Origin: an uncultured Gammaproteobacteria bacterium
GTDB lineage: Bacteria > Patescibacteriota > Patescibacteriia > UBA9570 > XYC2-FULL-38-9
Length of the DNA stretch: 64,000 nt
Direction of reading: 5' to 3'
Assembly: GCA_964344485.1 (NCBI GenBank)
Contig: CAYFNF010000003.1
Coordinates: 148,467 to 212,466, forward strand
Shown one piece after another: positions 4,390 to 29,202 of this stretch. The notes beneath the pieces are model-generated. The model ran no database searches, was not told where the DNA came from, and worked only from the letters and a program-made list of their open reading frames with translations. How positions within the stretch are numbered: position 1 is the stretch's first letter; every line of letters begins with the position of its first letter. The position numbers and the translations under genes were made by a program.

Positions 4390-4914
4390 CTACACGGTGT
4401 CGCGGAAGGTCTCTTGCGGCTGATCGATCCACGGGCACTCACCGCTGGCGTCTGTTGCCACGAACTGCGCGTGGACGTCCGGTTCGACCGTTGAGGTCTG
4501 CTTGTGCCACAGGACAGCGAGCGTGATCTCGTCGCGTGGGATACTCTCCCAGTCAGCAAGCCACTGCAGGGTGCGTTCCGTGGTCAGACCCGAGTCCGTC
4601 AGGTCATCGACCAGAATCACTCCAGCGCGCCGAAGCGGTTTGGCTGAAGTGAGGTCGCGGCTGAGCATGACCTCGCGCTGCTTCTGGTCCCCGTCCGGGT
4701 AGCTGGAGACCGAGAGCACGGCCAGCGGAAGACCGAGCGTACGAGCGATCAGCTCACCGGGCAGCATGCCGCCCTTGGCGATGCAGATCACCTGCTGGAA
4801 CTCGATTCCGCTCTCGCGAAGCTTCCGGATCAGGGTCCGGACCAGCTCGAAGTATGCGTCCCAGGTCACGTGTATTCGCGGGTGTTCGTCTGACATGATG
4901 GTTCCGTCCTCCAA
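4390..4914 (-). CDS. gpt: xanthine-guanine phosphoribosyltransferase-like (type I PRTase)
   Basis: Collinear similarity to E. coli Gpt: VTWD, I..GG(M/L)LPG.L.AR.LG, SSY....Q.E, PRPP-binding VILVDDLTDSGLT, C-terminal WIDQP. CDS is about 60% GC, far above flanks. Confidence 0.7.
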   Translation of the reverse strand: MEDGTIMSDEHPRIHVTWDAYFELVRTLIRKLRESGIEFQQVICIAKGGMLPGELIARTLGLPLAVLSVSSYPDGDQKQREVMLSRDLTSAKPLRRAGVILVDDLTDSGLTTERTLQWLADWESIPRDEITLAVLWHKQTSTVEPDVHAQFVATDASGECPWIDQPQETFRDTV

Positions 4915-4975: not shown

Positions 4976-5893
4976 TTAATTTACCGTATAATCTGCGAAC
5001 TCGGGCTCTCGGATGAATTCAACATGAGCCAGGTTGCCGACTCCTGTTTCCTGGTCCTGACGAATCATGCGCTCTAGATGTGGAATAATGCTCTCTGGAT
5101 AAAAACGAATCGCGCTTAAACTATTTCTCAGCACATCGGATAAACGCACAGTTGCGTTTCCGGTCTCTTGAAAAGAAGGATCAATATGCTGGATTAATTG
5201 TTCGAGTAAACCGCGGAGGTGAGCCTCTGCTCGTCGCATGTTTTCCACTTCATCGTCTCGTAATTGTATTTTTCCACTATGTATCAATTCCATAATATGA
5301 CTGGAAAGAACACCGAATAGATGTGGATTCTCCATTTCAAGTTTATAGTAGCGATGAGATCCACCTTGTTCATCAGTAACCAAGAACTGTATTTCATCCA
5401 TAGGGTACTCTCTGACTCCTGCTTTGCTCATCAAGTTTGGCATTGCGAGAACACGATCCTGGTCCCCAATGCTTGCAGTGAGCTCTTTGACTAGTCGATC
5501 AATCTCAGGAGCAGAACGATCCAATACAGTTGTGCGGTCCCCAGAATACTCCGTGCCAGGTTGTTCTCGTTGAATGACAAGCTTTCGATCAAGCACCGCG
5601 TTGTTCACCGTACGCCCAACAAAGTAATCTACTTGTGTTCTATCCAACGTACGTAGTAAGCTCGTGCGGTTATAACGCTTTCCTAGTGTTGGTGTTCGTA
5701 GCTGATCATACGTACCTTGCGAGAACTCCCGTTGCGGTTCACGTGTGAGTAAATGCTGTAGGTATCGCTCGGAACGTTCGACTGTTTGTCCTTCTTTTAG
5801 TTTCTCTTCTCTCAACCGCGCAACAAAACCTGGATCATCGCGTAAGCGCGGATCTTGCCATCCTCCCCTTTGATATAACGGCCTACCTGGCAT
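4976..5893 (-). CDS. hypothetical protein (305 aa, no recognised domain)
   Basis: Long intact ORF with native-like composition; no motif identified by eye. Confidence 0.4.
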   Translation of the reverse strand: MPGRPLYQRGGWQDPRLRDDPGFVARLREEKLKEGQTVERSERYLQHLLTREPQREFSQGTYDQLRTPTLGKRYNRTSLLRTLDRTQVDYFVGRTVNNAVLDRKLVIQREQPGTEYSGDRTTVLDRSAPEIDRLVKELTASIGDQDRVLAMPNLMSKAGVREYPMDEIQFLVTDEQGGSHRYYKLEMENPHLFGVLSSHIMELIHSGKIQLRDDEVENMRRAEAHLRGLLEQLIQHIDPSFQETGNATVRLSDVLRNSLSAIRFYPESIIPHLERMIRQDQETGVGNLAHVEFIREPEFADYTVN

Positions 5894-5951
5894 TGTTGTA
5901 TTATACTACTATCTGTCTCTATTCTGGGTCTGAATTACTGCTTTGTCAATA

Positions 5952-5980
5952 TTGACAGCTTTTACTACGTGATATATAGT
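5952..5980 (+). promoter_or_regulatory. sigma-70-like promoter (TTGACA, 17-bp spacer, TATAGT)
   Basis: Perfect -35 hexamer and 5/6 -10 hexamer with 17-bp spacing in an AT-rich intergenic region; followed about 100 nt later by an intrinsic terminator. Confidence 0.45.
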
Positions 5981-6068
5981 ACTCGCAACATGAAGAACCA
6001 CGTATACAACGCTACAGTAACAACTACCCACCTTATGTGAGGCGTTGTTTAGTTTGTATCAATACCCT

Positions 6069-6093
6069 AGCGCCTCACTCGAGGCGCTTTTTG
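6069..6093 (+). terminator. rho-independent terminator (8-bp GC-rich stem AGCGCCTC/GAGGCGCT + TTTTT)
   Basis: Perfect inverted repeat with 4-nt loop followed by T-run; no upstream + strand CDS, so terminates a short transcript from the 5952 promoter. Confidence 0.5.
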
Positions 6094-6263
6094 ATTATTT
6101 ATTCATTATGAACTTTCTCTTTTTTCAATCAACTACTACACCGTTATTGCTCTTCTTCCTCACTGGAACAGTGCCGTAATTAGTGTTGTGTAGTTGAAAG
6201 GAAGAAGAGCGCGGTCCGAATGGGCCGTGTTTTTGTTCTTTTGAATGTAAAGGAGGAATTCCA

Positions 6264-7232
6264 ATGTATGGAATTGAAGCAGAGTATCTGATGACGAGTC
6301 ATCGCATCCAAGATGTGCTCAAGCTGCAGCTCCCGGGCGTGACCGCCGAGTTCTTCGACTTCATGGTCGAGATCATCACGGATCCGCACGCGCGTGCACG
6401 TCAGGCTGTGGACCAGCTGGAGCGTCGGGTGCAAAGAATGCGTCGACGAGGTGTGGAGCTCGAGCAGTGGGCGTCCTTCCCGGACCGAGTTCAGCCGATT
6501 ACGTTCACGGACGTGGTCGCAGACAGCCCGTACTACCGCTGGGTCTATGACCAAGCGTGTAGATTCACGGGTCATGAGCCGCTGGACCTGCACCATGTGG
6601 GCATGCACCTGAACTACTCGTGCTCGGACATGAGCGAAAACGAGCTGGTGCACGCGGTGAACTGGTGTCGGTGCATGAACTTCTTGTTCATCCTGTTCTC
6701 AGCAAACTCACCGTTCCAGAATGGGCAGTCCTGCGGGCTACTGTCACGACGGTCATATCAGTACCCCAACCGATACGACGTCCCGCTGTGGGAAAGCGCC
6801 GTCGCGTTCAAGCGCTGGATCCAGGAGCAAGAAGCGTTGTATCGCATCTACCCTGGAAAAGGTCGCTGCTGGATGACGGTCTGCCCGCGCTTAGAGGATA
6901 ATGATTTCCGCAAACCGATTCAACGGATCGAACTGCGATCGTTAGACTCAGGCACCAATGTCCGCTTCGGTGTTGTGCACGGGTGCTGCAAGCTACTCGA
7001 GCGCATTGTCTTGCGCGCACGCCAAGGAGCGCCCCTGCCAGCGCAACTGAACGAACTGCAGCACAACGATCGAGAGGTCTCGCGGCTCGGAGCAAGCGCA
7101 TGGGTACGCTTGAATGGGCAAGAGTTCTGCGTGCAGCAGCTCGCTGAACAATGGGCAGCGGGTATCGACACGCTGGAGCAGATATTAACGCACGGATGCG
7201 CAGCACAATCGTCCTTGCGCTACTGCGTTTAA
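6264..7232 (+). CDS. GCS2-family carboxylate-amine ligase (glutamate-cysteine ligase family 2 / YbdK-like amidoligase), tentative
   Basis: N-terminal GIEAEY (GxExE[FY] hallmark of GCS2/YbdK), about 320 aa, internal His-rich HHVGMH; strong AAGGAGG RBS 8 nt upstream; CDS about 60% GC. Confidence 0.45.
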   Translation: MYGIEAEYLMTSHRIQDVLKLQLPGVTAEFFDFMVEIITDPHARARQAVDQLERRVQRMRRRGVELEQWASFPDRVQPITFTDVVADSPYYRWVYDQACRFTGHEPLDLHHVGMHLNYSCSDMSENELVHAVNWCRCMNFLFILFSANSPFQNGQSCGLLSRRSYQYPNRYDVPLWESAVAFKRWIQEQEALYRIYPGKGRCWMTVCPRLEDNDFRKPIQRIELRSLDSGTNVRFGVVHGCCKLLERIVLRARQGAPLPAQLNELQHNDREVSRLGASAWVRLNGQEFCVQQLAEQWAAGIDTLEQILTHGCAAQSSLRYCV

Positions 7233-7327: not shown

Positions 7328-8551
7328 TTATTTCATTCTGAACTTCTTCCATGGGCTCCACTTGCTCCACCCAGCATCATTGCCGCATCGCACTCTGAAA
7401 CGATAGTACTGTTTACTCTTCACGAATTTCTTTGACTTTTTCAGAAATTTTGAATTAGTAGTAAGTCCTTTAAACTTTTTCACAGATGTAAATTTCCCGT
7501 TTGCTTTCTTTTTTTGTAACACTGCTTGATAGGTATCGGCATTTGCTTTCGCTTTCCACCACAACTTTGCTGACTTCTTCTTTTTCTTTTTCACTTTCAG
7601 ATGCTTCTTTTTCTTGATCTTGCTTGGTGCAGTGAGTTCATTAATTGTAAAATTTGCTAATGCATAATCTTCTGCTGAATCTGCTGCGCCATCAGTGGTC
7701 ATAGCAACACTATGCGCTCCGGCAATCCCAGCAACAGCATCACTGATCAATAAATCATACGCATCTTCATTACTTTTAGCTACGTCGGTAAGGACCTCAC
7801 AACTGAGTACAGAATTCTGACTGAGGTCATACGTTAAAATCTCATCTAAAGTGCCTTTAGAATTGTCTATAGTTGCATCAGTTAGATCCCACCCTGATTC
7901 ACTAGGCGATTTATTCTCTGCAACAAACACAATGCTTAGCTCTTCTCCGCTAGATAATCCACGGCTAAGCGTAAAATAGAGTTCTAGATCCAGTGTAGAG
8001 CCGGCGGTTGCCTCAGTTGGAGAAACTGATAACGAACCTACGGCATTTCCAAGGCCTTGGATGGACACAGTATCATCAGTCATGGTTGCATTCGCACTTT
8101 CACTCAGAGGCTGCGTTGTAACTCCAAAGCGAATTGACGTTGCCTCATCAGGATTCACCGCATCTGCTAGGGTGACGGTATACTTGTCTGCGGGGAGTTT
8201 TGCGGATAACGTTAATACAGTGCCCCTGCCATCAAGCACTGGTGAAAAAATAAAATTGGAGTTGCCAATAGATCCCTCTGATGAAGGAACCACATTTTGT
8301 AAATTTACATACTCCGGACCGTCGTCTTCTGTAGAGAAAATTGAGATAGTTGAACCGCTGGGTAGATCTACGTTAGTAGTGACGGCGATAGTATACGTCT
8401 CGGTTTCCCCAGCAATAGAAGCTGTTGGTGCAGCGGATACTTCTGATATATTTGCATCTTCCGTTCCTTGCATGCTAAATGCTTGCGCAGATGATGGCGC
8501 GTACACCAGGACTGCTGCGATAGCGAGTGTAAGCAAGATTGTTTTTTTCAT
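7328..8551 (-). CDS. secreted protein with Sec signal peptide, Ser/Thr-rich beta-rich body and Lys-rich C-terminal tail with FN3-like end
   Basis: MKKTILLTLAIAAVLVYAPSSAQA signal; C-terminal KKKKHLKVKKKKKK...YYRFRVRCGNDAGWSKWSP. Confidence 0.5.
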   Translation of the reverse strand: MKKTILLTLAIAAVLVYAPSSAQAFSMQGTEDANISEVSAAPTASIAGETETYTIAVTTNVDLPSGSTISIFSTEDDGPEYVNLQNVVPSSEGSIGNSNFIFSPVLDGRGTVLTLSAKLPADKYTVTLADAVNPDEATSIRFGVTTQPLSESANATMTDDTVSIQGLGNAVGSLSVSPTEATAGSTLDLELYFTLSRGLSSGEELSIVFVAENKSPSESGWDLTDATIDNSKGTLDEILTYDLSQNSVLSCEVLTDVAKSNEDAYDLLISDAVAGIAGAHSVAMTTDGAADSAEDYALANFTINELTAPSKIKKKKHLKVKKKKKKSAKLWWKAKANADTYQAVLQKKKANGKFTSVKKFKGLTTNSKFLKKSKKFVKSKQYYRFRVRCGNDAGWSKWSPWKKFRMK

Positions 8552-9925: not shown

Positions 9926-11320
<1,395 letters not shown>

Positions 11321-18214: not shown

Positions 18215-21200
18215 TTATGTTGTTATCCTACCATATCCCATTACTGTTGGAAGTAGTCTCATTGGGCTAATATCTCGATATCGTGTCTTGCCTGGTTCCC
18301 CGGTTGGCTCTTCCATGCGAGCAAGATACGCCCCGGTTGCTAGAGACTTCATAAATTTCTCGAACCCTTCATGGATTGCGCGTCCTCCTTCAGAGATAAT
18401 CATCAATACCTCTTTATACTTCTCACCGGTTTCCAAGGTGCCTGACACCACCGCAGCAACACGTTCTAACTGTTCTGCTTCAACATCAGGCACAAACGTG
18501 CGAATTCCCTCTTGCACTAACGCCGGGTTCTGGAATTGTGCGAGCATGCCTAAGAATATCTTCTTAATGCTATCAATCTCTGTTTGCGCGATCTCGCCCG
18601 CGCTTCCAAGGTCCAGCTCTCCGAGTTCACCATCTGGCGTGACCACCCAATTTCCTGGGTGCGGATCTGCTTGAAATCGTCCTTTCACGAATATTTGATA
18701 CATGAGCGCGTCAAACGCTTGTACGTGGATATCTTCTAATCGACCGACGAGACCTTCATACGCAGTCATTTCATCTGGCTGCAAGTCGTATTTCGCTTGA
18801 AAATCTGCCAAGGTGCGTCGCCCCATTGCTACGTCAGTTAATTCTCGTAACGACAACCCTCGAATCTCCTCTTCTAATATATGTTCTTCACTGTGATCTA
18901 GGATCTCTGCAATGCGCACCGGGAACAGACGCGCCATAGCTGCTTGTGGGTAGTCTTCCATAGCCGCAGCCACTGCTTCATGATTCCGTACTTCTTCTTG
19001 GAAGTTTGCCTCATCACGTAACCAACGACCGATACGATCTTCCAAACCATCAGGTACAGTAAAATCTGCTTCGCGAAGATTTCCCATAATCCTATTCAGT
19101 ACCCGAAGGTCTTCCCCGAGATGCTTTGCAATAGATGGTCTTCGCACTTTTGCAATCACACGCTGTCCGTCTTCTCTAGTCGCACGATAGACTTGTTTAA
19201 TTGACGCAGCAGAGATTCGTCTGTCCATAGAAACCAGCCGATGTGGATGGCCTTCTTCAAACTGTCCCACTGCTCCCATCATGTGCATGCTGGCAGTACG
19301 GTGGAACGTTTTTGCGTTCTGTTGGAGCTTGCGCAATTCCTCGGCGATGTCATCAGGGAGCAACGGGGTACCGTCCGCGTTCTTTTCTTCAGCTAAGACT
19401 TGGCCTGCTTTAATACCGACTGGCCCGACCGCTTCTAGTAATCCACGCAGGCGTTCTCCAATTGTAGAGTCTCCTTGTCCGCGTAGTACTTCCATCATCT
19501 CGATGTAGACTTTTGCACGTCGGAATGGACCGTACTCTTGTAATGCAGTTGTAAAGATCACTCGTACTGCTTCTCTTCCTCTCTCTCCCAGTGCTTCTGC
19601 TGCTTCAGGTGGAAAGACTCGCTCAAACGATCGATCAATAAATTCTTGGAATATCGCTTCGTCTTCTTCTTCGCGCGGGTCCATGACACCGTTCTCTCCA
19701 AAGAGCAAACGGATATAGGTCTCTTCGCGTTCCTGTGGAGTGGCTGCAAAGAGTAGGTCTGGCATGTCTTCCACTGAGCACTCATTATGTCCACCGAATG
19801 CACGTAATATGCGCGGAGGTTGATCAGTCTCTCCGATAGTCCATAATACAAATTCTTTTCTGTCTTCACGGTTTAAATATGCTAAAACCGAATTGATTTT
19901 CTCTACTGTAGATTGTTGTGATAGTTCTGCGTCCTCGGTGGTGCGTCGTTGTACATCAAAAAGACGGCGTGTGATTTCCCGTGCTTGTGGAGGAGTGCGG
20001 ACTACGCCAGTATCTCCAAGTTGCAATAGCGCTTCACCCCGTACATGTGATGCGTGTGGGTAGAGCTCACTGATACGATCCAATTCGCTCGCAAAGGTCT
20101 CTTCCCCTGTTGCAAGGTGTTCTCGGAATAATGAATTCGCTCTTCGTGACCAAAGCTGCTGATGCGCTTGATCTGCAAACAGTGGAATGGTTCGTTGATA
20201 AAACGTATATAGTTCATGTGCAACATCTGGCTGAATCTCGTTCCCTTCTGGTGCAACAACTTCGTGTCCGTTCGTAGTAAGGCCACGCTCTTGTAGTAAT
20301 GCTGTTTCTATGGCGCCTAATAATTCATCACGATAATTCGTCACCTCTGGAATGAGTTCTTGAACGCGGTCCACTCTTCCAACTGCGGGGATCGAGGGAT
20401 CCGCTGGTAATTGAGTGTAGTCTATATAGAACTCTAGTGCATTGTACCGCTCTGAGTATTTGCGGTCCCCTCGGAATATCGTAGTAAAGCTCGGCGCAGA
20501 AGGATCATACGCTGCAGCATCAGATTCGATATTACGGGGGATCAACTCACTAGTGCTTTTTGAATAATGCGACTCTCGATCTATCGGGTGATAACGTTGA
20601 ACGAATCCACTCTCCACCACCTCATCTGGAAGCGCTCCTGGATGATACACTCGAAAGATGTCGCGAAGCTGCGTATCACGTGTGGAAACTGGAACAAACT
20701 GCGTTATAGCTGCAACACTCTCATCTTCTGATCGCTCATCTGGTTCCACATGCCATCTGCCCCATTGCCATATAATGCCGTGCGCTTCTAGTGCTCGTTG
20801 CATAATTGAATATGTAACCCCGCGATCAATACGATCCACGCCCCATTCTCCACTTCTATCTTCGGCTTGTTTGCATTTCCCTTCTATCTCTACGCAATAC
20901 CGTGCGAGCTCTTCTAGCTCTGGCTGAGTGAGTGCATCAAATGCTGCTTGTAAATCTGCAGCGTGTGGTGAAACGCTGGTATCAAAATTAATCGCGCCGT
21001 CTCGCAGCACTCTCTTCAGCGGCGCAACGATGGAATCGCCTGGATTAAGCACCATATACAACCGAACATACTCAATAGACAGCGAAATGCTATAGATAGC
21101 AGCTGCTTTATCGCGCTCTGTATAATCCTCAACTTCACGTCTGTCGATACAGTCGCTATCCCACTTCGGTACCACATCAAGTGCTGCCTCTAAAAAGTCT

Positions 21201-23764
21201 AACTGCTCTTGCTCTGACATACGTGCTCGTCGCTCTGCATCATTCCATGCTCCTCGAATGTGCGTCCATATTACTGAGGGATCTTCTCCTTCTAGAAAGC
21301 GGAGCATCTCTGCAGGTGGAACAGAATCAGAACATGATGATATAATCGCATCCAGAAACTCTTGTCGAGCTCGTTTAGATTCATACGTCACTGCAGGGTA
21401 TAGATGAAGTATCGGTGCGGCTCGCTCAACTAAGTCATCGTATGATGCTATCCCGACTTCATGCAACAATCCAACTAACTCAGCTTGATGCAGAGAAGCA
21501 ACTTCAGCATGGGAAACCTGTAAAATACTATGCATCTGTTCTAGGCGTTCTTGAGGGGTGAGTGTTTGAAACCCTTCTCTCTCAGCTCGTGCTTGGATCG
21601 CACGAGTTACCACGTGCTCCCATAATACATAGATAGCATCAGCACCGCGGAGAGGTGCGTCAAATCCTGTTTCTTCTAAAAATAATTCGTTCGCTGAGGG
21701 TCTCGCTTCTATAGCTGGTTGTGGAAAGTGGCGTAACCACTGTTCACACTCCTGTTGTGAAAGTGTTGCAACAAAACCTTCAAGTTCCGCGGGTTGATAT
21801 CCTCTTGCAGATAACTTCATGGCGAGTTCAGCAACCAACTGTCCAAGTGTAGCGGCGTGCTCTGCTGAAAGTAATGCGCGACCCTCTGCGCTAGTAGTAT
21901 ACCGCTGTGCAAACCGCTGAGCGAGTTCCGGAAGTATACGATCAACAGTAGGAGAAGGAATGGTCCGTGGTTCTAAGGCTGGCATGGATTCTCCTGTGGC
22001 AATTGCTTGTCCTAACGCGGCAAGCGCTTCATTGTCATCACTATCAAACGCGTTTCGCGCTTCCATCATGAGAACTTGCCTGATGACTGCTACTCTTCCC
22101 TCTGGAGTTGAGACATCATCTGCTCTACGTAACTCTTCAGGTAGATAATGCTCTCTTGTGAGGTCGACTGTTAAGACACCTTGAGTGAGTTTGTCCAGCT
22201 GCATCTTCCAATTGCGTGCTTGGTCATGAAAAAATGGGGTACTGCTTTCACTGCAGAGAGTCATAAGCTCTTCAGGCTCTGCTGCACGCACTTGCTCTTT
22301 TACTGCATCATTATATTCATATCCGTCTTCTTTCGGCCCGTCGATATCTGCGTTAGAAATAAGCGTGTCTAGCGTGTCAGCGGACACACCATCAACTACT
22401 GCTTCTAGCTGTGCACGAAGATGCTGTACTTTACGTTGTAGTTCAATACGTGCTGCAAGCTTTGCTGCTTTTTCATGATCGTCCGGGTCTTCATCAGCAG
22501 CTGCTTGCGCTTGTGGAATTTGCTCACTGAGAAACCGTAGTGTTTCATCATATGCTTTGATTACTTCCGCGCGTTGCCGCTGCAGTCGCGTGTGCAGCGA
22601 TCGTTCAAATTTCTCTTCGTCATACGGCCCTTCCTCTACTTGTGCCCCAAAATCAAATTCTCTATCCATATATCGAGAGAGTTTATCCGGTGCTACCGAA
22701 GCCCTTGCCAAATACTCTGCTCTTCCTTCAGAGTAATGGTAACCGTAATATGCGGCATGTAGTGCATTGAGCACTTCTGCAAAATTGTGAAGCACAATCC
22801 TCTGTGCATAGTGTTTTCGCATTCGCTCCTGCTCTGCTGCGTGATGAAATAACGCGTGACGATCTAATACAAAAGCAGCAACACCAACTTCAACCGCATC
22901 ATGAAAACTCTCAGCTTGAGCGATCATGTCTTCAATATGGTCTAAACCCTCAGCACGGTACAATCGCGTGCCAGGTCGGCCGGGTGGTTCATCGATAAAT
23001 GCACGTTGCACTTCTGCTGGAACAACGGTCGGCTCTTTTTCAATATTCGGTAGCCAGGTGTCTGGGCTCTCCACTAACTCCACGAGCTCTCTATATCTAT
23101 CAGCGGATCGAGGGTGGGATGTTCCAATAGGCAGATCATTCGATAGGCTTAATAGAAACTGGATAGCTGCTAATCCCTCACGTGGATTATATCCAGCTTG
23201 TGCAAGTGCGATCAGTCCACCACGGTCAGCGTCGTATTCCGCATTCAAGCGGCGCTGCTTCTCATCGTGATCTGGATAGTCTTCATGAACGACGCCTTCT
23301 TCAGTATGCTGATCAATATGTGTACTTTCATGCGCTGCCACCATAGCGATCATGTCTTCGGTCATTGGTCGACCGTGTCGTTCGCACCAGCGCCCAAGTT
23401 CTCGCAGCAATCCCATGTATGTGTAGACGTGCGCGTGCCCGCTTACGACAAACGCATTAATTCCGGGTGAATCAATTGCAACCACATCAGTGGCGGGAAT
23501 CGATAACTGCCGCTCAATTCTTGCTTGAATGCGTGCCAGCATCTCTTTTCGCGGATCATCATCATCTAGAATTCCAAAACGCTGCTCCAATTGATAGAGC
23601 ATTCGTCGTAAATACGCTTCTGTTTGGTCTTGCCTACTTTGTGCTTCTGCAAGCCCAATTATTTCTACTCTTGGCGGTTCATCATGATCAACTTCAGGAA
23701 CTTCAGCAATTGAACGTGCTGGTCGTGGTAGTCTGGATTCTGATGCTGCAGCGTGTGAGTTCAT
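18215..23764 (-). CDS. giant multidomain protein (1849 aa): N-terminal M48-family zinc metalloprotease domain + C-terminal ABC1/UbiB-type atypical kinase-like domain
   Basis: M48 signatures INAFVVSGHAHVY, HESTH(x)..., EYDADRGGLIALAQAGYNP. ABC1 signatures VGPVGIKAGQVLAEEKNADGTPLLPDDIAEELRKLQQNAKTF, ISAASIKQVYRATREDGQRVIAKVRRPSI, FQADPHPGNWVV. Confidence 0.75.
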   Translation of the reverse strand: MNSHAAASESRLPRPARSIAEVPEVDHDEPPRVEIIGLAEAQSRQDQTEAYLRRMLYQLEQRFGILDDDDPRKEMLARIQARIERQLSIPATDVVAIDSPGINAFVVSGHAHVYTYMGLLRELGRWCERHGRPMTEDMIAMVAAHESTHIDQHTEEGVVHEDYPDHDEKQRRLNAEYDADRGGLIALAQAGYNPREGLAAIQFLLSLSNDLPIGTSHPRSADRYRELVELVESPDTWLPNIEKEPTVVPAEVQRAFIDEPPGRPGTRLYRAEGLDHIEDMIAQAESFHDAVEVGVAAFVLDRHALFHHAAEQERMRKHYAQRIVLHNFAEVLNALHAAYYGYHYSEGRAEYLARASVAPDKLSRYMDREFDFGAQVEEGPYDEEKFERSLHTRLQRQRAEVIKAYDETLRFLSEQIPQAQAAADEDPDDHEKAAKLAARIELQRKVQHLRAQLEAVVDGVSADTLDTLISNADIDGPKEDGYEYNDAVKEQVRAAEPEELMTLCSESSTPFFHDQARNWKMQLDKLTQGVLTVDLTREHYLPEELRRADDVSTPEGRVAVIRQVLMMEARNAFDSDDNEALAALGQAIATGESMPALEPRTIPSPTVDRILPELAQRFAQRYTTSAEGRALLSAEHAATLGQLVAELAMKLSARGYQPAELEGFVATLSQQECEQWLRHFPQPAIEARPSANELFLEETGFDAPLRGADAIYVLWEHVVTRAIQARAEREGFQTLTPQERLEQMHSILQVSHAEVASLHQAELVGLLHEVGIASYDDLVERAAPILHLYPAVTYESKRARQEFLDAIISSCSDSVPPAEMLRFLEGEDPSVIWTHIRGAWNDAERRARMSEQEQLDFLEAALDVVPKWDSDCIDRREVEDYTERDKAAAIYSISLSIEYVRLYMVLNPGDSIVAPLKRVLRDGAINFDTSVSPHAADLQAAFDALTQPELEELARYCVEIEGKCKQAEDRSGEWGVDRIDRGVTYSIMQRALEAHGIIWQWGRWHVEPDERSEDESVAAITQFVPVSTRDTQLRDIFRVYHPGALPDEVVESGFVQRYHPIDRESHYSKSTSELIPRNIESDAAAYDPSAPSFTTIFRGDRKYSERYNALEFYIDYTQLPADPSIPAVGRVDRVQELIPEVTNYRDELLGAIETALLQERGLTTNGHEVVAPEGNEIQPDVAHELYTFYQRTIPLFADQAHQQLWSRRANSLFREHLATGEETFASELDRISELYPHASHVRGEALLQLGDTGVVRTPPQAREITRRLFDVQRRTTEDAELSQQSTVEKINSVLAYLNREDRKEFVLWTIGETDQPPRILRAFGGHNECSVEDMPDLLFAATPQEREETYIRLLFGENGVMDPREEEDEAIFQEFIDRSFERVFPPEAAEALGERGREAVRVIFTTALQEYGPFRRAKVYIEMMEVLRGQGDSTIGERLRGLLEAVGPVGIKAGQVLAEEKNADGTPLLPDDIAEELRKLQQNAKTFHRTASMHMMGAVGQFEEGHPHRLVSMDRRISAASIKQVYRATREDGQRVIAKVRRPSIAKHLGEDLRVLNRIMGNLREADFTVPDGLEDRIGRWLRDEANFQEEVRNHEAVAAAMEDYPQAAMARLFPVRIAEILDHSEEHILEEEIRGLSLRELTDVAMGRRTLADFQAKYDLQPDEMTAYEGLVGRLEDIHVQAFDALMYQIFVKGRFQADPHPGNWVVTPDGELGELDLGSAGEIAQTEIDSIKKIFLGMLAQFQNPALVQEGIRTFVPDVEAEQLERVAAVVSGTLETGEKYKEVLMIISEGGRAIHEGFEKFMKSLATGAYLARMEEPTGEPGKTRYRDISPMRLLPTVMGYGRITT

Positions 23765-23832: not shown

Positions 23833-26800
23833 TTATGCAGCAGCAGCTGGCGGCTCGGGTTGCTGACGATGTCGATGATGGCTGAACCATGCTATACCAA
23901 CTAAGAATATAATGACGATTCCAATGTTAATCATCACCAGCATGGTGGTGCTTGAGAGGCGATTCTTCTCTTCAATCACAAACCGCGTGATCTCGACCTG
24001 GTCAGATTTCACACCGTTTACTTCGGTTTGAGCAAAAACGACGTGATCTCCTTCACCGAGCAACTCTGCTGGAACCGTAATACTCCATTTACCGTTGGTG
24101 TCTACTTGCGCGACTTTTACTAATGGGTCTGAATAGATCGTCAGAATTGCCACAGCAGACATCTCTCTATACTGCTCAGCAATCTCTCCGGAGATAGTAA
24201 TCTCGTTCTTCTGTTCTTCGACTGTGCCGCCGAATAATCGTCTTGTTGCATCAATAATATCCCACTGCTGAACTTGCGTATAGGTGACGGTCCCATCATC
24301 TGATACCGTCGGTTCGATTGTAGTGCTATCTTGCTGGAACTCTATATCCGCAGTGTCTTGCAGCTGTCCAGTCTCGGTGGTCTGCAATTCTTCTCTTTGC
24401 TGCTTGGTCAGCGGCACGACTTCATCTGTATATGTATACGGATTCTCTGGCGGTTGTTTGACTCCATCCTCAGCATATTGTGTTTTTATTAGCTCTTCAA
24501 ATTTCTTTACGTTCACTACAACCACATCTGGAAGGCCGGTGTCGGTTGAACCCCCTTGGATTGGGTTGGTGCCGTACTTCACTTCATCACTATCTGATAC
24601 GCCGTCGTCATCAGAATCCGTGTCTGTTGGGTCAGAACCCAAATCCACTTCGTCGGAATCGCTTACCCCATCTTGATCTGAGTCCGCGTCTTCTGGATCA
24701 GTACCTAGCTCTTTCTCTTGTTCATCAGTCAGGCCGTCTCCGTCACTATCGGTCTCAGCTGGCTCGGTGTCAGTTCCTTGGTCAGGGCCTGGGTCTGTGC
24801 CCTGGCTCGGATCGCCGGTGTCAGTGTCTGGAGTATCAGTAGAAGGAGTTTCTTGAGGGGTGGCAGGGGCTACGGGTACGCTCACAGGAGCACTTACTGG
24901 TGCTGACACAGTAAAGGTGATTTCATTCGAAGTAGTCTCTGGATAGCCAGCTTGTTCAGAAGTGACAGCGTATGCAGTATGCGTGCCTGTAGATAGTGCA
25001 GATGGACGACATGCAACAGAGCTGGTCTCTCCACCACCAGTTGCAGTAGTATCGCAAATTCTCTGCCCATCAACATAGATTTGGGTATAAGCACCAGTAC
25101 GTGCTAATAGAGTAATCCATGGTCGGTTATATGATGTCTGCGCGTCCACCACAACTTGTTGCATCACTGCTGCAGGGTATGGGGTTGCGCGTACAATAGT
25201 CTGTGGAGTAAATACCTTTATCACAGTATCTTTTTTCGTATTCACGACCTTTACCTTGATCGCATTCGCTCCAATTGATAGTGCGGTGGTTGGTGTGCCC
25301 TGATATGAAATCACTGGACCAGTGTCGCTGGTAATAGCAGCAGTTCCGCTCAACGTACCGTTTACGAACAGTTGTACTGCAACATCATCCACTGAGATAT
25401 TTCCGATATAGACGTTACCGAAAAAGACCGGGTTCTTACTAAACGTCACATTCGAAGTCAATTTACTTCGCTCCTCTTTTGGATAGATATGAAATCGATC
25501 TGACACTACAGAAGATCCGACCGTATACCGGACACTGGATGTCTTTCCCACATTCCCTTTCTTATCTTCGATATTTGCCTCAGACGTATGTTTGTCGTAA
25601 TTCTTCTGGATCTGCGAATCTACCTCCCATTCTCCTTGCGCGTCTGTGGTGTCAGAACCGTCTAACTCACCTTCGGTATATACAGAAACTTCAGACTCTG
25701 TTTCAGCAGTTCCACTAAATGAAACGTATTGGTTGTAAACAATGTCATTTTGTTCTGGCTCTTCGATTACTGCTGCAGGCGGGCCGATTGAGAAACTCGC
25801 GGTCTTCTCCCACTCTGTGGAGCTGGATCTACTAGCGGTCTTCACTTTTGTGTACAGCTCCCAGAGTCCGCGCTTCAGTGTAAACTCTGTTTCTGCTGTG
25901 CCGTTACTGCCGACCTGTTCTTCATTGATCTTCTCTGCGCCGTTCTTTACGCGCACAAATTTAAACACCACCCACTGGCCAGTGGTTCCGGTTGCTGATA
26001 GCTCTACCTTCAGACGACCGGTATCCTCCTGTGCACTCAGTCGATGTACGCTCGAAGGATCACTTCGCAACTGCTCTCCATTTACTGTTAGTGCGGTGGG
26101 TAACAGTGATGACGCTGATCCTTCCTGTGTAGTGAATGAGTCTACTGAAGAGTTCGATGTATTACTACTCGCATCCGCGCTCACTACCTGATAGTAATAT
26201 GTAGTGCTGCTTAAAAGCCCTGATACAGTCACTGAATGGCTCTTTGTTAATCCACTAGTTGTTTGTGACTGCGGAATTTGCTCAGTCTTTCCATATCGTA
26301 CTTGTGATGTTGCTTTTTCATTCGTGGTCCAAGTAATAACCGCGGATGTAGAACGGCGAGTGACTTGAATATCTGAAATAGTGGGCGCCGAAAGGTCTCC
26401 AGTATCTGTGGTTGGGATTACTGACCCTGAAGTAAACTGAGATGTATTGTTTGATGAGTCTGTTAGCGTTGCAGTGACTTTATAGTTAGAAGCATATGAT
26501 TCTAGAGTGCTCTTGGGAACATCAACGCTCCATGTTAAACTCGTGACCGCTGCTTCTGTTATATAGACCTCGCCTTCATTATTCCGGTCTACAAAGACCT
26601 CCACTGTTCCGTCACTAGATGCAGTACCCGAGACAGTGTATGTATCTCCTTGCAAAGAAATTGCACTGATCACTGGGGTAGCAAGCCCCTCATTTGCTCC
26701 ATCAATTAGATTAATTCCACTTGAGGAGTTGTTATAGATAGAATTCTGTGTTACTAAATTGTATTTAGTTCCACTTTGAGAGATGTTCAATCCATCTGCA

Positions 26801-29202
26801 TAGGCGTTAGTAACTATGTTGCCCGGTCCAATGGTGTTGCTCTGACTAGTATTGGAGAGTGTTACTGCGTTCCACTGACACGGAAGCGGATCACCGTTTG
26901 TATCGATGCCGATCCTGTTTGATGAGAGAGTATTGTTTGAAGAGTCAGCAAATACCACACAGCGGTCTATATTGCCGATCACATTATCACTAATGGTGTT
27001 CCCAGTGCTGTTCGCTCGAATGATAATTCCATATACGTCATCCTGAGTAACAGGTTTCGTGATACCAATCCTATTACTGGAAATCACATTATTAATTCCA
27101 CCTTGCATTAGAATGTTCATGACATTGCCCGCAATAGTGTTGCTACCATTGATAGTGTTAGAACTGCCAGTGAGTTCAAGGCCGACAGCATTCTGCATCA
27201 CCGTTTGTTTACTCACTGCGAGGCCAATAGTATTCCCAGTGGCGGTGTTACTGTCTCCTTCAATCCATAACCCCACGCCGCTATGGTTAGAGATGAAATT
27301 CGTAGATATAGAATTACTATCGCTTTCAGTATCAATCACAAGACCGTTTGTGGTGTTTCCGATATTCGTATCACTTGCAGATACACCGATGTAGTTATCT
27401 GAGAGTGTGTTTGAATCAGAGGAATAGATAGCAATGCCCGATTCATTAAAACCAATGACATTAGATTGCGATGTTCCAATTCTACTATTTGATACTCCAG
27501 TAAATAGAATTCCGGTTCCAGTGTTCCCTCGATCGACTAGTGAAGCGTTGGTTCCAATATAATTACCCTCTATCGCTAGCTGAGAGATGTTTCCTGCGCT
27601 GCTATTTGCCTCAATACCATTTGATAGATTTCCAGAGATAGTATTCTTCGAAATCGATACCGCATTCGCGCTAATGGCAATAGAGATGCCATCCTCACCA
27701 TTCGAAACCGCTGCTCCACTTGAATCCAATCCAATAGTATTCTCAGTTATTGTGACATCGCTATCGTTTTCCAAGTAAATCCCATTTGCATCATTTCCTG
27801 AAATCACGTTATTCGGACCAATCGTTGTGTCTGCCCCACCAAAGATTCCGTCAGTATTTGGAATGGCTGTTCCAGAACTGTTTAATCCAATATAGTTCCC
27901 GGTGATTGTTCCAGTGCTCTGGTTCACTACTACCCCTGACTGGGTATTACCTGCAATAGTGTTGTTCGAAAGTGTATTCGCTCCTTGAAATGTTACACCG
28001 TTATTATTTTCAACTGCGCTCGTGCCGTTACTATCTACTCCGATATTATTCTTATTCACCGTGTTCCCAGATGTAGTTGCTTCTAAGAAGATACCTGACT
28101 TTGTATTGCCTGAAATTGTATTGCCAACGATCGTGTTATTGTTTCCGGTTACTCGAATACCTGAATCCCCATTAGTGGATTTTGTGGAACCGTCTGCAGT
28201 TATACCTATATAGTTCAAACCGATAGTACTGCTACTGCCTCGCAATTCAATTCCGTTGCTCGTATTTCCAGAGATGATATTGCGGAACGCTTGGTTGCTG
28301 CTATCTCCAATAGTGATGCCAGATACCGTCGCTGCTATATTAACTCCGTTTATCCCATTAGCGGTGATAGTGTTAGAACGCAATACATTAGTATTTGAAT
28401 TCTCGATAAAATTCACTCCCTGCTCAGAATTATTCGATATCGAGTTACCGGTTACCGTGGTGCTGGTTGCAGTGCCCCCAAAATAGATTCCGTTACGATT
28501 GCCTTTGATTGTGTTGCCTGAAATGGCATTATTACTCGATGCGACCTGAATGCCTTCACCCCCTGCAAAGCCTTCTATCGTGAAATTTGATATCTGACAA
28601 TTATCCGCTCGGATAGCTAGCCCATCATTATCTTGAGCTGCTGACAGCGCGCTCCCTTCAATGCCAACTCTGTTATCCCCATCGATTATAAGTTCATCAG
28701 TAATCGCGGGTAGCACACTTGAGGTTACTGCTATCTTTCCGTTTAATGAACTATTGAAACTGATCACGTCAGCACCAAGACTCGCGTTTGCATCGAGTAT
28801 AGCTTGCCGCAAAGATCCCGCACCGCTGTCATTCAAGTTTGACACAGTGAAATTAGCAGCATACGCGACTTTGATCTGATTCACCGGTAGCACTACAGAT
28901 GAAATTGCATACAAGAGAATAACCACTGCAACAAAGAACGCGGTGACTAACCCGCTGCGTAGTCGTATCTTTTTTCTGCGACTGTGATGCTCATGATACG
29001 AAAAACCCCAGATCCCTTTATGGTCTTGGTCATATAATGTACAGAATGTGTGCTGAGGTGGATAGAAAATGATATAGAAATATTCGTACAGCACGTATGC
29101 TATATATAGTGGAACGAGCGCAATGCCTAAAAGGACACGAATAATGAACGGTCGGGGTTTGGCTTGTACGTAGCACTCAATATGATTGATGGTTTTTTTC
29201 AT
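23833..29202 (-). CDS. giant cell-surface protein (1789 aa): N-terminal TM/signal, GSLRQAI (CSLREA-like) motif, many parallel beta-helix repeats, FN3-like domain, TSP3-like Ca-binding D-x-D-x-D-G repeats, C-terminal TM anchor
   Basis: Repetitive N.I.GN...GI units typical of right-handed beta-helix; DSDGDGLTDEQE/DSDQDGVSDSDE/DSDDDGVSDSDE repeats; C-terminal hydrophobic LVMINIGIVIIFLVGIAWF + HHRHRQQ. Confidence 0.8.
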   Translation of the reverse strand: MKKTINHIECYVQAKPRPFIIRVLLGIALVPLYIAYVLYEYFYIIFYPPQHTFCTLYDQDHKGIWGFSYHEHHSRRKKIRLRSGLVTAFFVAVVILLYAISSVVLPVNQIKVAYAANFTVSNLNDSGAGSLRQAILDANASLGADVISFNSSLNGKIAVTSSVLPAITDELIIDGDNRVGIEGSALSAAQDNDGLAIRADNCQISNFTIEGFAGGEGIQVASSNNAISGNTIKGNRNGIYFGGTATSTTVTGNSISNNSEQGVNFIENSNTNVLRSNTITANGINGVNIAATVSGITIGDSSNQAFRNIISGNTSNGIELRGSSSTIGLNYIGITADGSTKSTNGDSGIRVTGNNNTIVGNTISGNTKSGIFLEATTSGNTVNKNNIGVDSNGTSAVENNNGVTFQGANTLSNNTIAGNTQSGVVVNQSTGTITGNYIGLNSSGTAIPNTDGIFGGADTTIGPNNVISGNDANGIYLENDSDVTITENTIGLDSSGAAVSNGEDGISIAISANAVSISKNTISGNLSNGIEANSSAGNISQLAIEGNYIGTNASLVDRGNTGTGILFTGVSNSRIGTSQSNVIGFNESGIAIYSSDSNTLSDNYIGVSASDTNIGNTTNGLVIDTESDSNSISTNFISNHSGVGLWIEGDSNTATGNTIGLAVSKQTVMQNAVGLELTGSSNTINGSNTIAGNVMNILMQGGINNVISSNRIGITKPVTQDDVYGIIIRANSTGNTISDNVIGNIDRCVVFADSSNNTLSSNRIGIDTNGDPLPCQWNAVTLSNTSQSNTIGPGNIVTNAYADGLNISQSGTKYNLVTQNSIYNNSSSGINLIDGANEGLATPVISAISLQGDTYTVSGTASSDGTVEVFVDRNNEGEVYITEAAVTSLTWSVDVPKSTLESYASNYKVTATLTDSSNNTSQFTSGSVIPTTDTGDLSAPTISDIQVTRRSTSAVITWTTNEKATSQVRYGKTEQIPQSQTTSGLTKSHSVTVSGLLSSTTYYYQVVSADASSNTSNSSVDSFTTQEGSASSLLPTALTVNGEQLRSDPSSVHRLSAQEDTGRLKVELSATGTTGQWVVFKFVRVKNGAEKINEEQVGSNGTAETEFTLKRGLWELYTKVKTASRSSSTEWEKTASFSIGPPAAVIEEPEQNDIVYNQYVSFSGTAETESEVSVYTEGELDGSDTTDAQGEWEVDSQIQKNYDKHTSEANIEDKKGNVGKTSSVRYTVGSSVVSDRFHIYPKEERSKLTSNVTFSKNPVFFGNVYIGNISVDDVAVQLFVNGTLSGTAAITSDTGPVISYQGTPTTALSIGANAIKVKVVNTKKDTVIKVFTPQTIVRATPYPAAVMQQVVVDAQTSYNRPWITLLARTGAYTQIYVDGQRICDTTATGGGETSSVACRPSALSTGTHTAYAVTSEQAGYPETTSNEITFTVSAPVSAPVSVPVAPATPQETPSTDTPDTDTGDPSQGTDPGPDQGTDTEPAETDSDGDGLTDEQEKELGTDPEDADSDQDGVSDSDEVDLGSDPTDTDSDDDGVSDSDEVKYGTNPIQGGSTDTGLPDVVVVNVKKFEELIKTQYAEDGVKQPPENPYTYTDEVVPLTKQQREELQTTETGQLQDTADIEFQQDSTTIEPTVSDDGTVTYTQVQQWDIIDATRRLFGGTVEEQKNEITISGEIAEQYREMSAVAILTIYSDPLVKVAQVDTNGKWSITVPAELLGEGDHVVFAQTEVNGVKSDQVEITRFVIEEKNRLSSTTMLVMINIGIVIIFLVGIAWFSHHRHRQQPEPPAAAA

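Follow-up and report, generated by a model that had tools for sequence, protein, structure and literature searches.

Classical amino-acid attenuators, among them the threonine leader thrL (RF00506) and the phenylalanine leader pheL (RF01859), combine a short open reading frame (ORF) with regulatory codons in a run, a terminator made of a hairpin and a U-run, and an antiterminator, terminator and antiterminator being mutually exclusive. Enzymes of the GCS2/YbdK type phosphorylate a carboxylate with ATP/Mg2+ and then pass the acyl group to an amine. Here we describe a locus at which the two appear to meet, in a 64-kb stretch of a bacterial chromosome (contig CAYFNF010000003.1; this whole stretch is called the window below, and positions are counted from its first nucleotide). 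It holds a gene for a GCS2-superfamily carboxylate-amine ligase, preceded by short ORFs with runs of Thr codons. We consider it likely that an intact, divergent GCS2 ligase stands here under a ribosome-mediated attenuator built on Thr codons, and that it is made when threonyl-tRNA is limiting. The leaders share with thrL and pheL the three parts named above, and the predicted logic is that of thrL, with read-through when the cognate charged tRNA is scarce. They differ in their host lineage, which is Patescibacteria rather than the Proteobacteria of thrL, in the tandem units found at three ligase loci, in a first leader ORF that is nearly leaderless, and in an antiterminator strand ("region 2") that lies over the leader stop codon with a U-UGA-GG core. 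Moreover, instead of thrABC they target a GCS2 ligase, alone or with an M20 hydrolase.

The ligase gene and the parts of the region in front of it are as follows (leader peptides are given up to the stop codon).

5952..5980, plus strand: sigma-70-type promoter, TTGACA-17 nt-TATAGT, 11/12 matches; drives the leader
5990..6040, plus strand: leader ORF 1, MKNHVYNATVTTTHLM, with Thr codons at 6014-6016 and 6020-6028
6036..6048, plus strand: region 2 of unit 1, UGUGAGGCGUUGU, the antiterminator strand over the leader-1 stop codon at 6038-6040
6069..6093, plus strand: terminator 1, AGCGCCUC-ACUC-GAGGCGCU plus T-run, with its hairpin at 6069-6088; ends the short transcript discussed below
6108..6179, plus strand: leader ORF 2, MNFLFFQSTTTPLLLFFLTGTVP, with Thr codons at 6132-6140
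6141..6161, plus strand: antiterminator strand of unit 2, core CUCUUCUUCC, which pairs with GGAAGAAGAG at 6200-6209
6200..6243, plus strand: terminator 2, a 13-bp stem at 6205-6234 with a T-run to 6243; its base, 6200-6209, is common to the antiterminator
6250..6256, plus strand: Shine-Dalgarno sequence of the ligase gene, AAGGAGG, 8 nt 5' of the ligase start
6264..7232, plus strand: ligase ORF, GCS2-superfamily ATP-dependent carboxylate-amine ligase, 322 aa, N-terminus MYGIEAEY

A first-pass annotation of this DNA had placed the ligase downstream of a short promoter-to-terminator transcript. Promoter (5952-5980) and hairpin (6069-6088) were both recovered in our analysis, but the transcript is no separate gene: it corresponds to unit 1 of a tandem attenuator. 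In the window, the ATG of leader ORF 1 lies 9 nt past the -10 box, leaving this ORF leaderless or nearly so, and a TTGACA/-10/ATG arrangement with a spacing of 6-11 nt is also found at L001, L003, L007, L010, L011 and L013 (L-numbers denote the loci fetched for comparison). Region 2 of unit 1 has its complement in the 5' arm of terminator 1, the duplex reaching -18.2 kcal/mol (p=0.001 against dinucleotide shuffles). The antiterminator duplex of unit 2 reaches -24.3 kcal/mol (p=0.002), and an alternative fold is also seen in the minimum-free-energy view.

The mechanism that we propose would run as follows. Transcription from the promoter would start with a nearly leaderless short ORF bearing a run of Thr codons, in the first of the window's two tandem attenuator units. 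When charged tRNA-Thr is plentiful, the ribosome would reach the leader stop codon and cover region 2; the downstream terminator hairpin could then form and stop transcription, the product being the short transcript. When charged tRNA-Thr is scarce, the ribosome would stall on the Thr codons and leave region 2 free to pair with the 5' arm of the terminator, and RNA polymerase would read through into the ligase gene. On this model the ligase should be made when charged tRNA-Thr runs short.

We compared the ligase family over 12 loci carrying a member and took leader units from the 10 loci with upstream DNA, 12 units in all; wherever such DNA was available, the attenuator design recurs. ORFs with Thr runs lie 5' of the ligase, or of an M20-ligase operon, in the window, L001, L003, L005, L007, L008, L010 and L013; the leader of L006 is partial, at the contig edge. 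At L011 (3900-4034) the leader, MKKKVGTAVLTSSSSTISLERS, carries Ser and Thr codons in the same terminator/antiterminator design, and the ligase of this locus, P0016, is among the two most divergent members of the family at ~37% identity. Two leader ORFs each are present at L001 (MRNRRFTTTTLNFLFSR and MNLFILTTTTTTTNSPPV) and L003 (MRNVRFTTTTTDTIFIG and MNFYQLTTTTTTASPP), with MRNRRFTTTTLNFLFSR and MRNVRFTTTTTDTIFIG being positionally homologous to leader ORF 1 of the window. The TTATGAA start context of the window's leader ORF 2 is conserved in L001 and L003, and in all three loci the tandem leaders match collinearly, starting at the TTGACA box and ending at the second terminator. Single leader ORFs occur at L005 (MTYCGRYTTTTLLTRLPS), L007 (MKSVFKTTTTKLP), L008 (MNNSPKKQLYTTTTTP), L010 (MKIFVFKFTTTTNPSDSR) and L013 (MMLAKYTTVTTTTTS).

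The runs comprise 3-7 consecutive Thr codons, or Ser plus Thr codons at L011; each lies in the frame of an ATG, with a stop close by, and translation is predicted. Within the leader-carrying loci, runs of at least four Thr codons inside short ORFs occur at leader positions only, and Thr-run scans of the window and the loci found no further copies of the unit. The leader peptides, 13-23 aa long, have nothing in common throughout except the Thr run, with no conserved leader or core, and those at the same tandem position share a short N-terminal start (MRNxRF; MNF/MNL). Since the Thr run is kept while its codons vary at the wobble position, a constraint on decoding is indicated.

The RNA geometry is conserved as well. 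In 12 units region 2 overlaps the leader stop codon (core U-UGA-GG) and finds its complement in the 5' arm of the terminator; p values from dinucleotide-preserving shuffles range per unit from 0.001 to 0.14, and Fisher's method combines them to 1.4e-12. The paired sequences differ between units, which argues that pairing is maintained by compensatory change. Hairpins with T-runs equivalent to the window terminators are present in all units. We then represented the ribosome by masking part of the RNA and computed the ensemble terminator probability for each unit. With the mask at the leader stop codon this probability was at least 0.89 in 12/12 units, and with the mask at some Thr codon it fell to 0.07 or below in 11/12; in unit 1 of the window it went from 0.97 to 0.07 with the ribosome on the first Thr codon of the run.

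Covariance models of known leaders were compared as well. Thr_leader (RF00506) gave 26.2 bits at L001 9827-9921 against a gathering score of 55, and both the Thr_leader and Phe_leader models align end-to-end on unit 2 of L001, the scores there and in the window being 24-30 bits against 55. In the window, a weak, sub-threshold Phe_leader match at 6104-6237 (23.7 bits against 55), likewise end-to-end, is the sole leader-family match, Thr_leader giving none up to E=1; at the gathering threshold Rfam reports tRNAs only over the window, and permissive scans of the leaders found no T-box and no riboswitch. These matches are a resemblance of architecture, not family membership. Judged by sequence comparison and folding models, a conserved, often tandem leader-peptide attenuator with Thr codons is well supported as the probable control element of these ligases, with the short transcript and the ligase gene forming one regulatory unit.

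The same short ORFs could be read in another way, namely as precursors of ribosomally synthesized and post-translationally modified peptides (RiPP), the Thr-rich products being modified by a GCS2-type amidoligase; the first-pass annotation had raised a peptide-modifying role. Such ORFs do lie directly 5' of the ligase in most loci, an M20 peptidase sometimes adjoins it, and ligases with a glutamine synthetase (GS) fold such as PafA act on peptide or protein carboxylates (PMC2588565). However, the peptides share little beyond the Thr run, apart from the short starts particular to each tandem-unit type, and have no conserved Glu/Asp carboxylate or Lys amine. At L003 and L010 they precede the M20 gene and not the ligase, and no transporter or other tailoring genes are found at the loci. 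In 12/12 units the stop codon falls inside the terminator-complementary segment, a geometry that an attenuator needs and a precursor does not. What the small ORFs keep is only the Thr run and the RNA-switch geometry, hence we take them for attenuator leaders and not for substrates, and a precursor role appears to us extremely improbable.

The composition of the enzyme itself points in the direction of the attenuator. Enzymes that are made when an amino acid runs short are known to contain little of it. Among 45 ORFs of the window (mean 6.6%) the ligase, at 3.1%, has the least Thr, and it also ranks lowest among 15 genes at L001 (2.4%) and among 9 at L010 (4.0%); at L003 the M20 protein (1.7%) and the ligase (3.3%) have the two lowest Thr contents of 9. 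The Thr depletion of the ligase and M20 proteins fits expression under Thr starvation.

We next turn to the enzyme. The annotation had called it a GCS2/YbdK-like carboxylate-amine ligase on the strength of a GIEAEY start and a length of about 320 aa. The ORF is confirmed, with 322 aa, an N-terminal MYGIEAEY and a ribosome-binding site, and strong Shine-Dalgarno sequences also stand 5' of the homologues. Pfam GCS2 (PF04107) matches it with 41.4 bits, above the gathering cut-off of 21, over profile positions 28-208/291, which bears out the family claim. In an hhalign comparison of the 17-member ligase family with 26 generic GCS2 proteins, the two aligned over their full length (307 columns) with 99.9% probability and an E-value of 8e-36, and every invariant generic GCS2 residue was matched in the family alignment. 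The GCS2 superfamily is defined by the GhExE signature and two active-site arginines, on core strand 5 and in the preceding loop (PMC2588565). In the ligase, the conserved residues are GhExE (G3, E5, E7), E29, E36, Y90/Y91, H115, N148-S149, S161/R163, R209 and E223/R225. Of these, the Mg2+/ATP-binding set G3-I-E5-A-E7, E29, E36, H115 and E223 is invariant in the 17 family members, as are the active-site arginines R209 and R225, which align to generic R220 and R236; the proposed check for conserved ligase residues thus found all catalytic residues kept.

An AlphaFold model of the ligase (pLDDT 87, pTM 0.89) gave consistent results. Its top Foldseek matches were 1r8g, 1tt4, 3ln6 and 1va6, at probability 1.00 and template-modelling (TM) scores of 0.64-0.72. 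The best matches in the PDB are the YbdK structures 1r8g and 1tt4 (TM 0.68-0.72, ~15% identity), and glutamate-cysteine ligase (GCL), PafA/Dop and glutamine synthetases follow as weaker matches. A PDB search by sequence yielded nothing significant (E ~0.5 to 1r8g). With YbdK (PF04107; 1r8g, 1tt4) and cyanobacterial-type GshA (TIGR02048), the ligase has in common the fold (TM ~0.7), full-length profile homology, GhExE, the Glu/His metal ligands and the two active-site arginines. It differs from them in its length of ~320 aa as against 370-380, in its ~15% identity to YbdK, in falling far below every NCBIfam cut-off, in forming its own tight clade and in standing under Thr-leader control. PafA/Dop belong to the same superfamily (fold search E 1e-5, TM ~0.5), and Dop shows that a GS-type fold can also hydrolyse amides; yet the similarity is well below that to YbdK/GCL, and no Pup-like protein, proteasome or Mpa genes accompany the ligase. 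No match was found among the PADLOC and PHROGs models, and a defence or phage origin was rejected.

Equivalog models were tried in turn. The YbdK equivalog (TIGR02050) was rejected at 42.6 bits against an NCBIfam cut-off of 176.4, and the GshA equivalog at 38.2 bits against 249 for gshA_cyano (TIGR02048), with the NF0100xx models lower still. "YbdK-like" therefore holds for the fold and at superfamily level, not for membership of the YbdK family. From alignment and model together, it is well supported that the ligase is a catalytically competent-looking, very divergent member of the GCS2 superfamily and probably the orthologue of neither YbdK nor GshA.

The family to which it belongs is rare and sharply delimited. 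Seven clusters were matched among 5.8 billion (5.8e9), and an exhaustive hidden Markov model search of 1.84 billion representatives returned ~10 sequences at E<1e-47, followed by a gap down to ordinary GCS2 proteins at E ~1e-8. The family counts ~17 clusters among 15 billion proteins. Members are mutually 32-57% identical and carry the family-specific invariant motifs YYRW, FPNRYDVP.W and GK.RCWM. An exact-protein look-up for the window's own ligase found nothing on record, and a genome-collection scan and a metagenome scan yielded one ligase locus each. The nearest out-group is bona fide cyanobacterial-type GshA, above the TIGR02048 cut-off.

This relationship invites a simpler view, in which the ligase would be a divergent gamma-glutamylcysteine ligase (GshA/YbdK) of thiol metabolism, and the hairpins and Thr ORFs would have no specific link to it. 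The out-group and the full set of catalytic residues speak for it, and M20 dipeptidases take part in glutathione turnover. Against this stand the scores just given, 38 bits as against 249 for gshA_cyano and 42.6 as against 176 for YbdK, and the ~40 orders of magnitude in E-value that part the family from generic GCS2 proteins. Nor does it explain a Thr leader kept at 32-57% identity or a Thr-depleted enzyme, and we regard it as unlikely.

The annotation had further described the ligase as an isolated, foreign gene of high G+C content. At 57.8% the gene is indeed GC-richer than the window (45.8%), and the excess is real at synonymous sites: its G+C content at third codon positions (GC3) reaches 0.70, whereas 45 window ORFs average 0.44 (sd 0.08). 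The ligase and a nearby phosphoribosyltransferase (PRTase) are the sole compositional outliers in the window. The ligase gene is, however, GC-richer than its flanks in 12/12 loci, for instance at L001 (GC3 0.57, neighbours 0.19-0.28) and at L010 (0.83 against ~0.45), while leaders and M20 genes are host-like in composition. Because the excess recurs in all 12 loci, it is a trait of the ligase family and no sign of one recent import.

It could still be argued that the ligase is part of a horizontally acquired island of high G+C content, the promoter, terminators and small ORFs being coincidental. The GC3 contrast of 0.70 to 0.44, the PRTase as a neighbouring outlier and a gene neighbourhood that is not conserved between genomes are what one would cite for it. 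The excess over the flanks at every locus in spite of 32-57% identity, and a leader architecture that is conserved, collinear across genomes and statistically non-random, argue against it, and a recent import seems to us very unlikely. Horizontal spread of the whole leader-plus-gene cassette is possible and compatible with the attenuated-ligase explanation. As a side observation, L010 holds two more small genes with GC3 ~0.8 (616-1062 and 5852-6151) among others of ~0.4-0.5, and genes of high GC3 seem to occur here and there in these AT-leaning genomes.

In four loci (L003, L009, L010, L014) a gene for an M20-family amidohydrolase lies directly 5' of the ligase. At L003 and L010, the loci with sequence available, the M20 gene has a Thr leader in front of it, which makes M20 and ligase one regulated operon. 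The M20 proteins fall into two subfamilies that are ~25% identical, PepT-like in L003, L009 and L014 and ArgE/DapE-like in L010, and this suggests that the association with the ligase arose more than once. An ATP-dependent, amide-forming ligase paired with an amidohydrolase recalls pathways that protect a compound by gamma-glutamylation or an N-acyl group and later deprotect it (PuuA/PuuD; M20 deacylases of the ArgE/DapE/LysK type). This is an analogy only; unlike in those pathways, no intermediate-converting enzymes lie nearby, and most loci have the ligase alone. Beyond the M20 gene, the gene neighbourhood of the ligase is not conserved between genomes; the sequence immediately 5' of it is.

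Some further elements were recorded at these loci. At L007 (176-339) a second strong terminator, AAAGAGUCUUCC...GGGAAGACUCUUUUU, lies 3' of the Thr-leader unit, with a CGGCAGUGGCUUUU motif before it; an ORF with a Thr run is absent from this element, which may be a second unit that has degenerated. At L010 (2470-2525) a terminator sits between the M20 gene and the ligase. The M20 stop codon lies within GGGUGAGGUG, to which the 5' arm and loop of this terminator, CGCCUCACC, are complementary; this repeats the design with region 2 over a stop codon, here at the end of a full-length gene. At L014, the one higher-GC locus that also has the M20 gene 5' of the ligase, a ProB-like glutamate 5-kinase (1455-2036, 127 bits, cut by the contig end) lies directly 3' of the ligase.

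At L001 the next gene 3' of the ligase is thrS, and this bears on a stress or resistance role. The attenuator would then sense uncharged tRNA-Thr arising from an inhibitor of threonyl-tRNA synthetase (ThrRS) or an antimetabolite, for example a ThrRS inhibitor that bears a carboxylate or a hydroxy-amino acid that competes, and the ligase would amidate or gamma-glutamylate the compound and so inactivate it. In other pathways, gamma-glutamylation by GS-fold ligases serves to detoxify or assimilate amines, and the attenuator reports the charging of tRNA-Thr, not Thr as such. A rare, patchy family of atypical composition is also what accessory or resistance genes often look like. Yet no efflux or other resistance genes lie nearby, thrS adjoins the ligase in this one locus only, and the recurrent M20 partner would be left without explanation. 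We judge this role to be decidedly improbable.

Several observations weigh against the preferred reading of a ligase made under threonyl-tRNA limitation, and they concern the switch, the partner and the chemistry. As to the switch, it was derived from thermodynamic folding, with the ribosome as a crude mask, rather than from co-transcriptional kinetics. The window holds the weakest copy of the family, with 3 consecutive Thr codons in each leader, and its unit 2 switches in part, the simulated terminator probability going from 1.00 to 0.54. No obvious Shine-Dalgarno sequence precedes the leader ORFs of second units, the leaders fall far short of the gathering scores of Rfam leader models, and the divergent L011 member has a Ser-rich leader, which may reflect a shift in the amino acid sensed. 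As to the partner, 7/12 loci have no M20 gene beside the ligase (upstream sequence of L006 ends at the contig edge), and no M20 homologue was found elsewhere in the 64-kb window. As to the chemistry, the regulated ligase is no known gene of Thr biosynthesis, no chemically obvious reaction joins a carboxylate-amine ligase to Thr supply, and the nearest named branch, cyanobacterial-type GshA, leaves room for plain thiol synthesis.

Two genes of the minus strand lie on the other side of the leader promoter region.

4390..4914 as listed from a TTG start, minus strand: a divergent PRTase of type I, 65 bits to Pribosyltran and under the cut-off of the Gpt equivalog
4976-5893, minus strand: 305-aa ORF of host-like composition, divergent from the leader promoter region

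The true start of the PRTase is likely ATG 4896, behind GGAGG. In composition it stands out most of all in the window, with a G+C content of 62.9% and GC3 of 0.80. Its family is rare, with 16 matches, and the relatives are labelled Patescibacteria or WS2; a homologue at L015 has GC3 0.73 in a locus of 0.48 GC, with no ligase nearby. The first-pass annotation had pointed to a Gpt-like PRTase of equally foreign composition near the ligase. A PRTase of deviant composition it is, but its linkage to the ligase did not extend to other loci: none was found beside any other ligase family member in the fetched loci. The 305-aa ORF has a promoter-like site on the minus strand (5949-5921), with the PRTase next on the same strand. 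Pfam, NCBIfam, PADLOC and PHROGs all returned nothing for it, and none of the fetched loci holds a homologue. A conserved ligase neighbourhood that includes the PRTase or the 305-aa ORF was rejected, as neither adjoins another family member.

The window is a stretch of bacterial chromosome with DnaG, RpoD, PPDK, PK, ClpC and RecG. The best named relatives of its ClpC are from Candidatus Kerfeldbacteria and Patescibacteria, and assignment of the host to Patescibacteria, the candidate phyla radiation (CPR), is well supported as judged by these relatives; this typing covers the window host only. The record that carries L001 and L004 (GCA_964522405.1, contig CAZFTR010000001.1) is labelled Gammaproteobacteria, has 36% GC and GC3 of ~0.2, and its label may be unreliable; it carries the ligase and leader that are otherwise associated with Patescibacteria.

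Other genes of the window, all on the minus strand, have unusual features of their own. The RpoD-like sigma factor (9926-11320) has an N-terminal extension of ~85 aa with Lys/Ala/Pro/Thr repeats, like histone H1. The product of 7328-8551, 407 aa long, has a signal peptide and matches no family; near its C-terminus it carries a poly-Lys stretch, KKKKHLKVKKKKKKSAK, followed by a weak Ig-like match. An ORF of 1849 aa (18215-23764) combines an M48 peptidase region with a C-terminal ABC1 atypical-kinase domain, and another of 1789 aa (23833-29202) has beta-helix/NosD, purple-acid-phosphatase-N and TSP3 repeats.

Patescibacteria make up a large share of bacterial diversity and are mostly uncultured. 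They are believed to be without most amino-acid biosynthesis and are thought to depend on others for amino acids. To our knowledge, next to nothing has been described of how they sense or answer amino-acid shortage. In our literature searches, neither a connection of GCS2 proteins with Thr leaders nor a leader-peptide attenuator from Patescibacteria turned up. What is new here is a GCS2 subfamily, together with a classical attenuator in a new lineage and with a new target.

As to function, the ligase, often in company with an M20 amidohydrolase, may help to supply or spare threonine or hydroxy-amino acids. Its chemistry would most plausibly lie in a gamma-glutamyl-type or N-acyl amino-acid conjugate, formed or processed together with that hydrolase. 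We put forward, tentatively and at clearly less than an even chance, that the ligase, with or without M20, constitutes a new response of Patescibacteria to limitation of threonine or hydroxy-amino acids, be it salvage or sparing or a defence against ThrRS poisoning. If this is true, the leaders would be the first ribosome-mediated attenuators described in Patescibacteria, and the family-wide GC3 enrichment would result from selection on a gene expressed in starvation, or from a leader-plus-gene cassette that spread repeatedly. For a GCS2 branch that has no assigned function, the leader offers a strong functional clue, namely that the enzyme would be needed when Thr-tRNA is short, and an attenuator that responds to tRNA-Thr charging and is tied to an orphan enzyme family would give such genomes a concrete, testable regulatory element.

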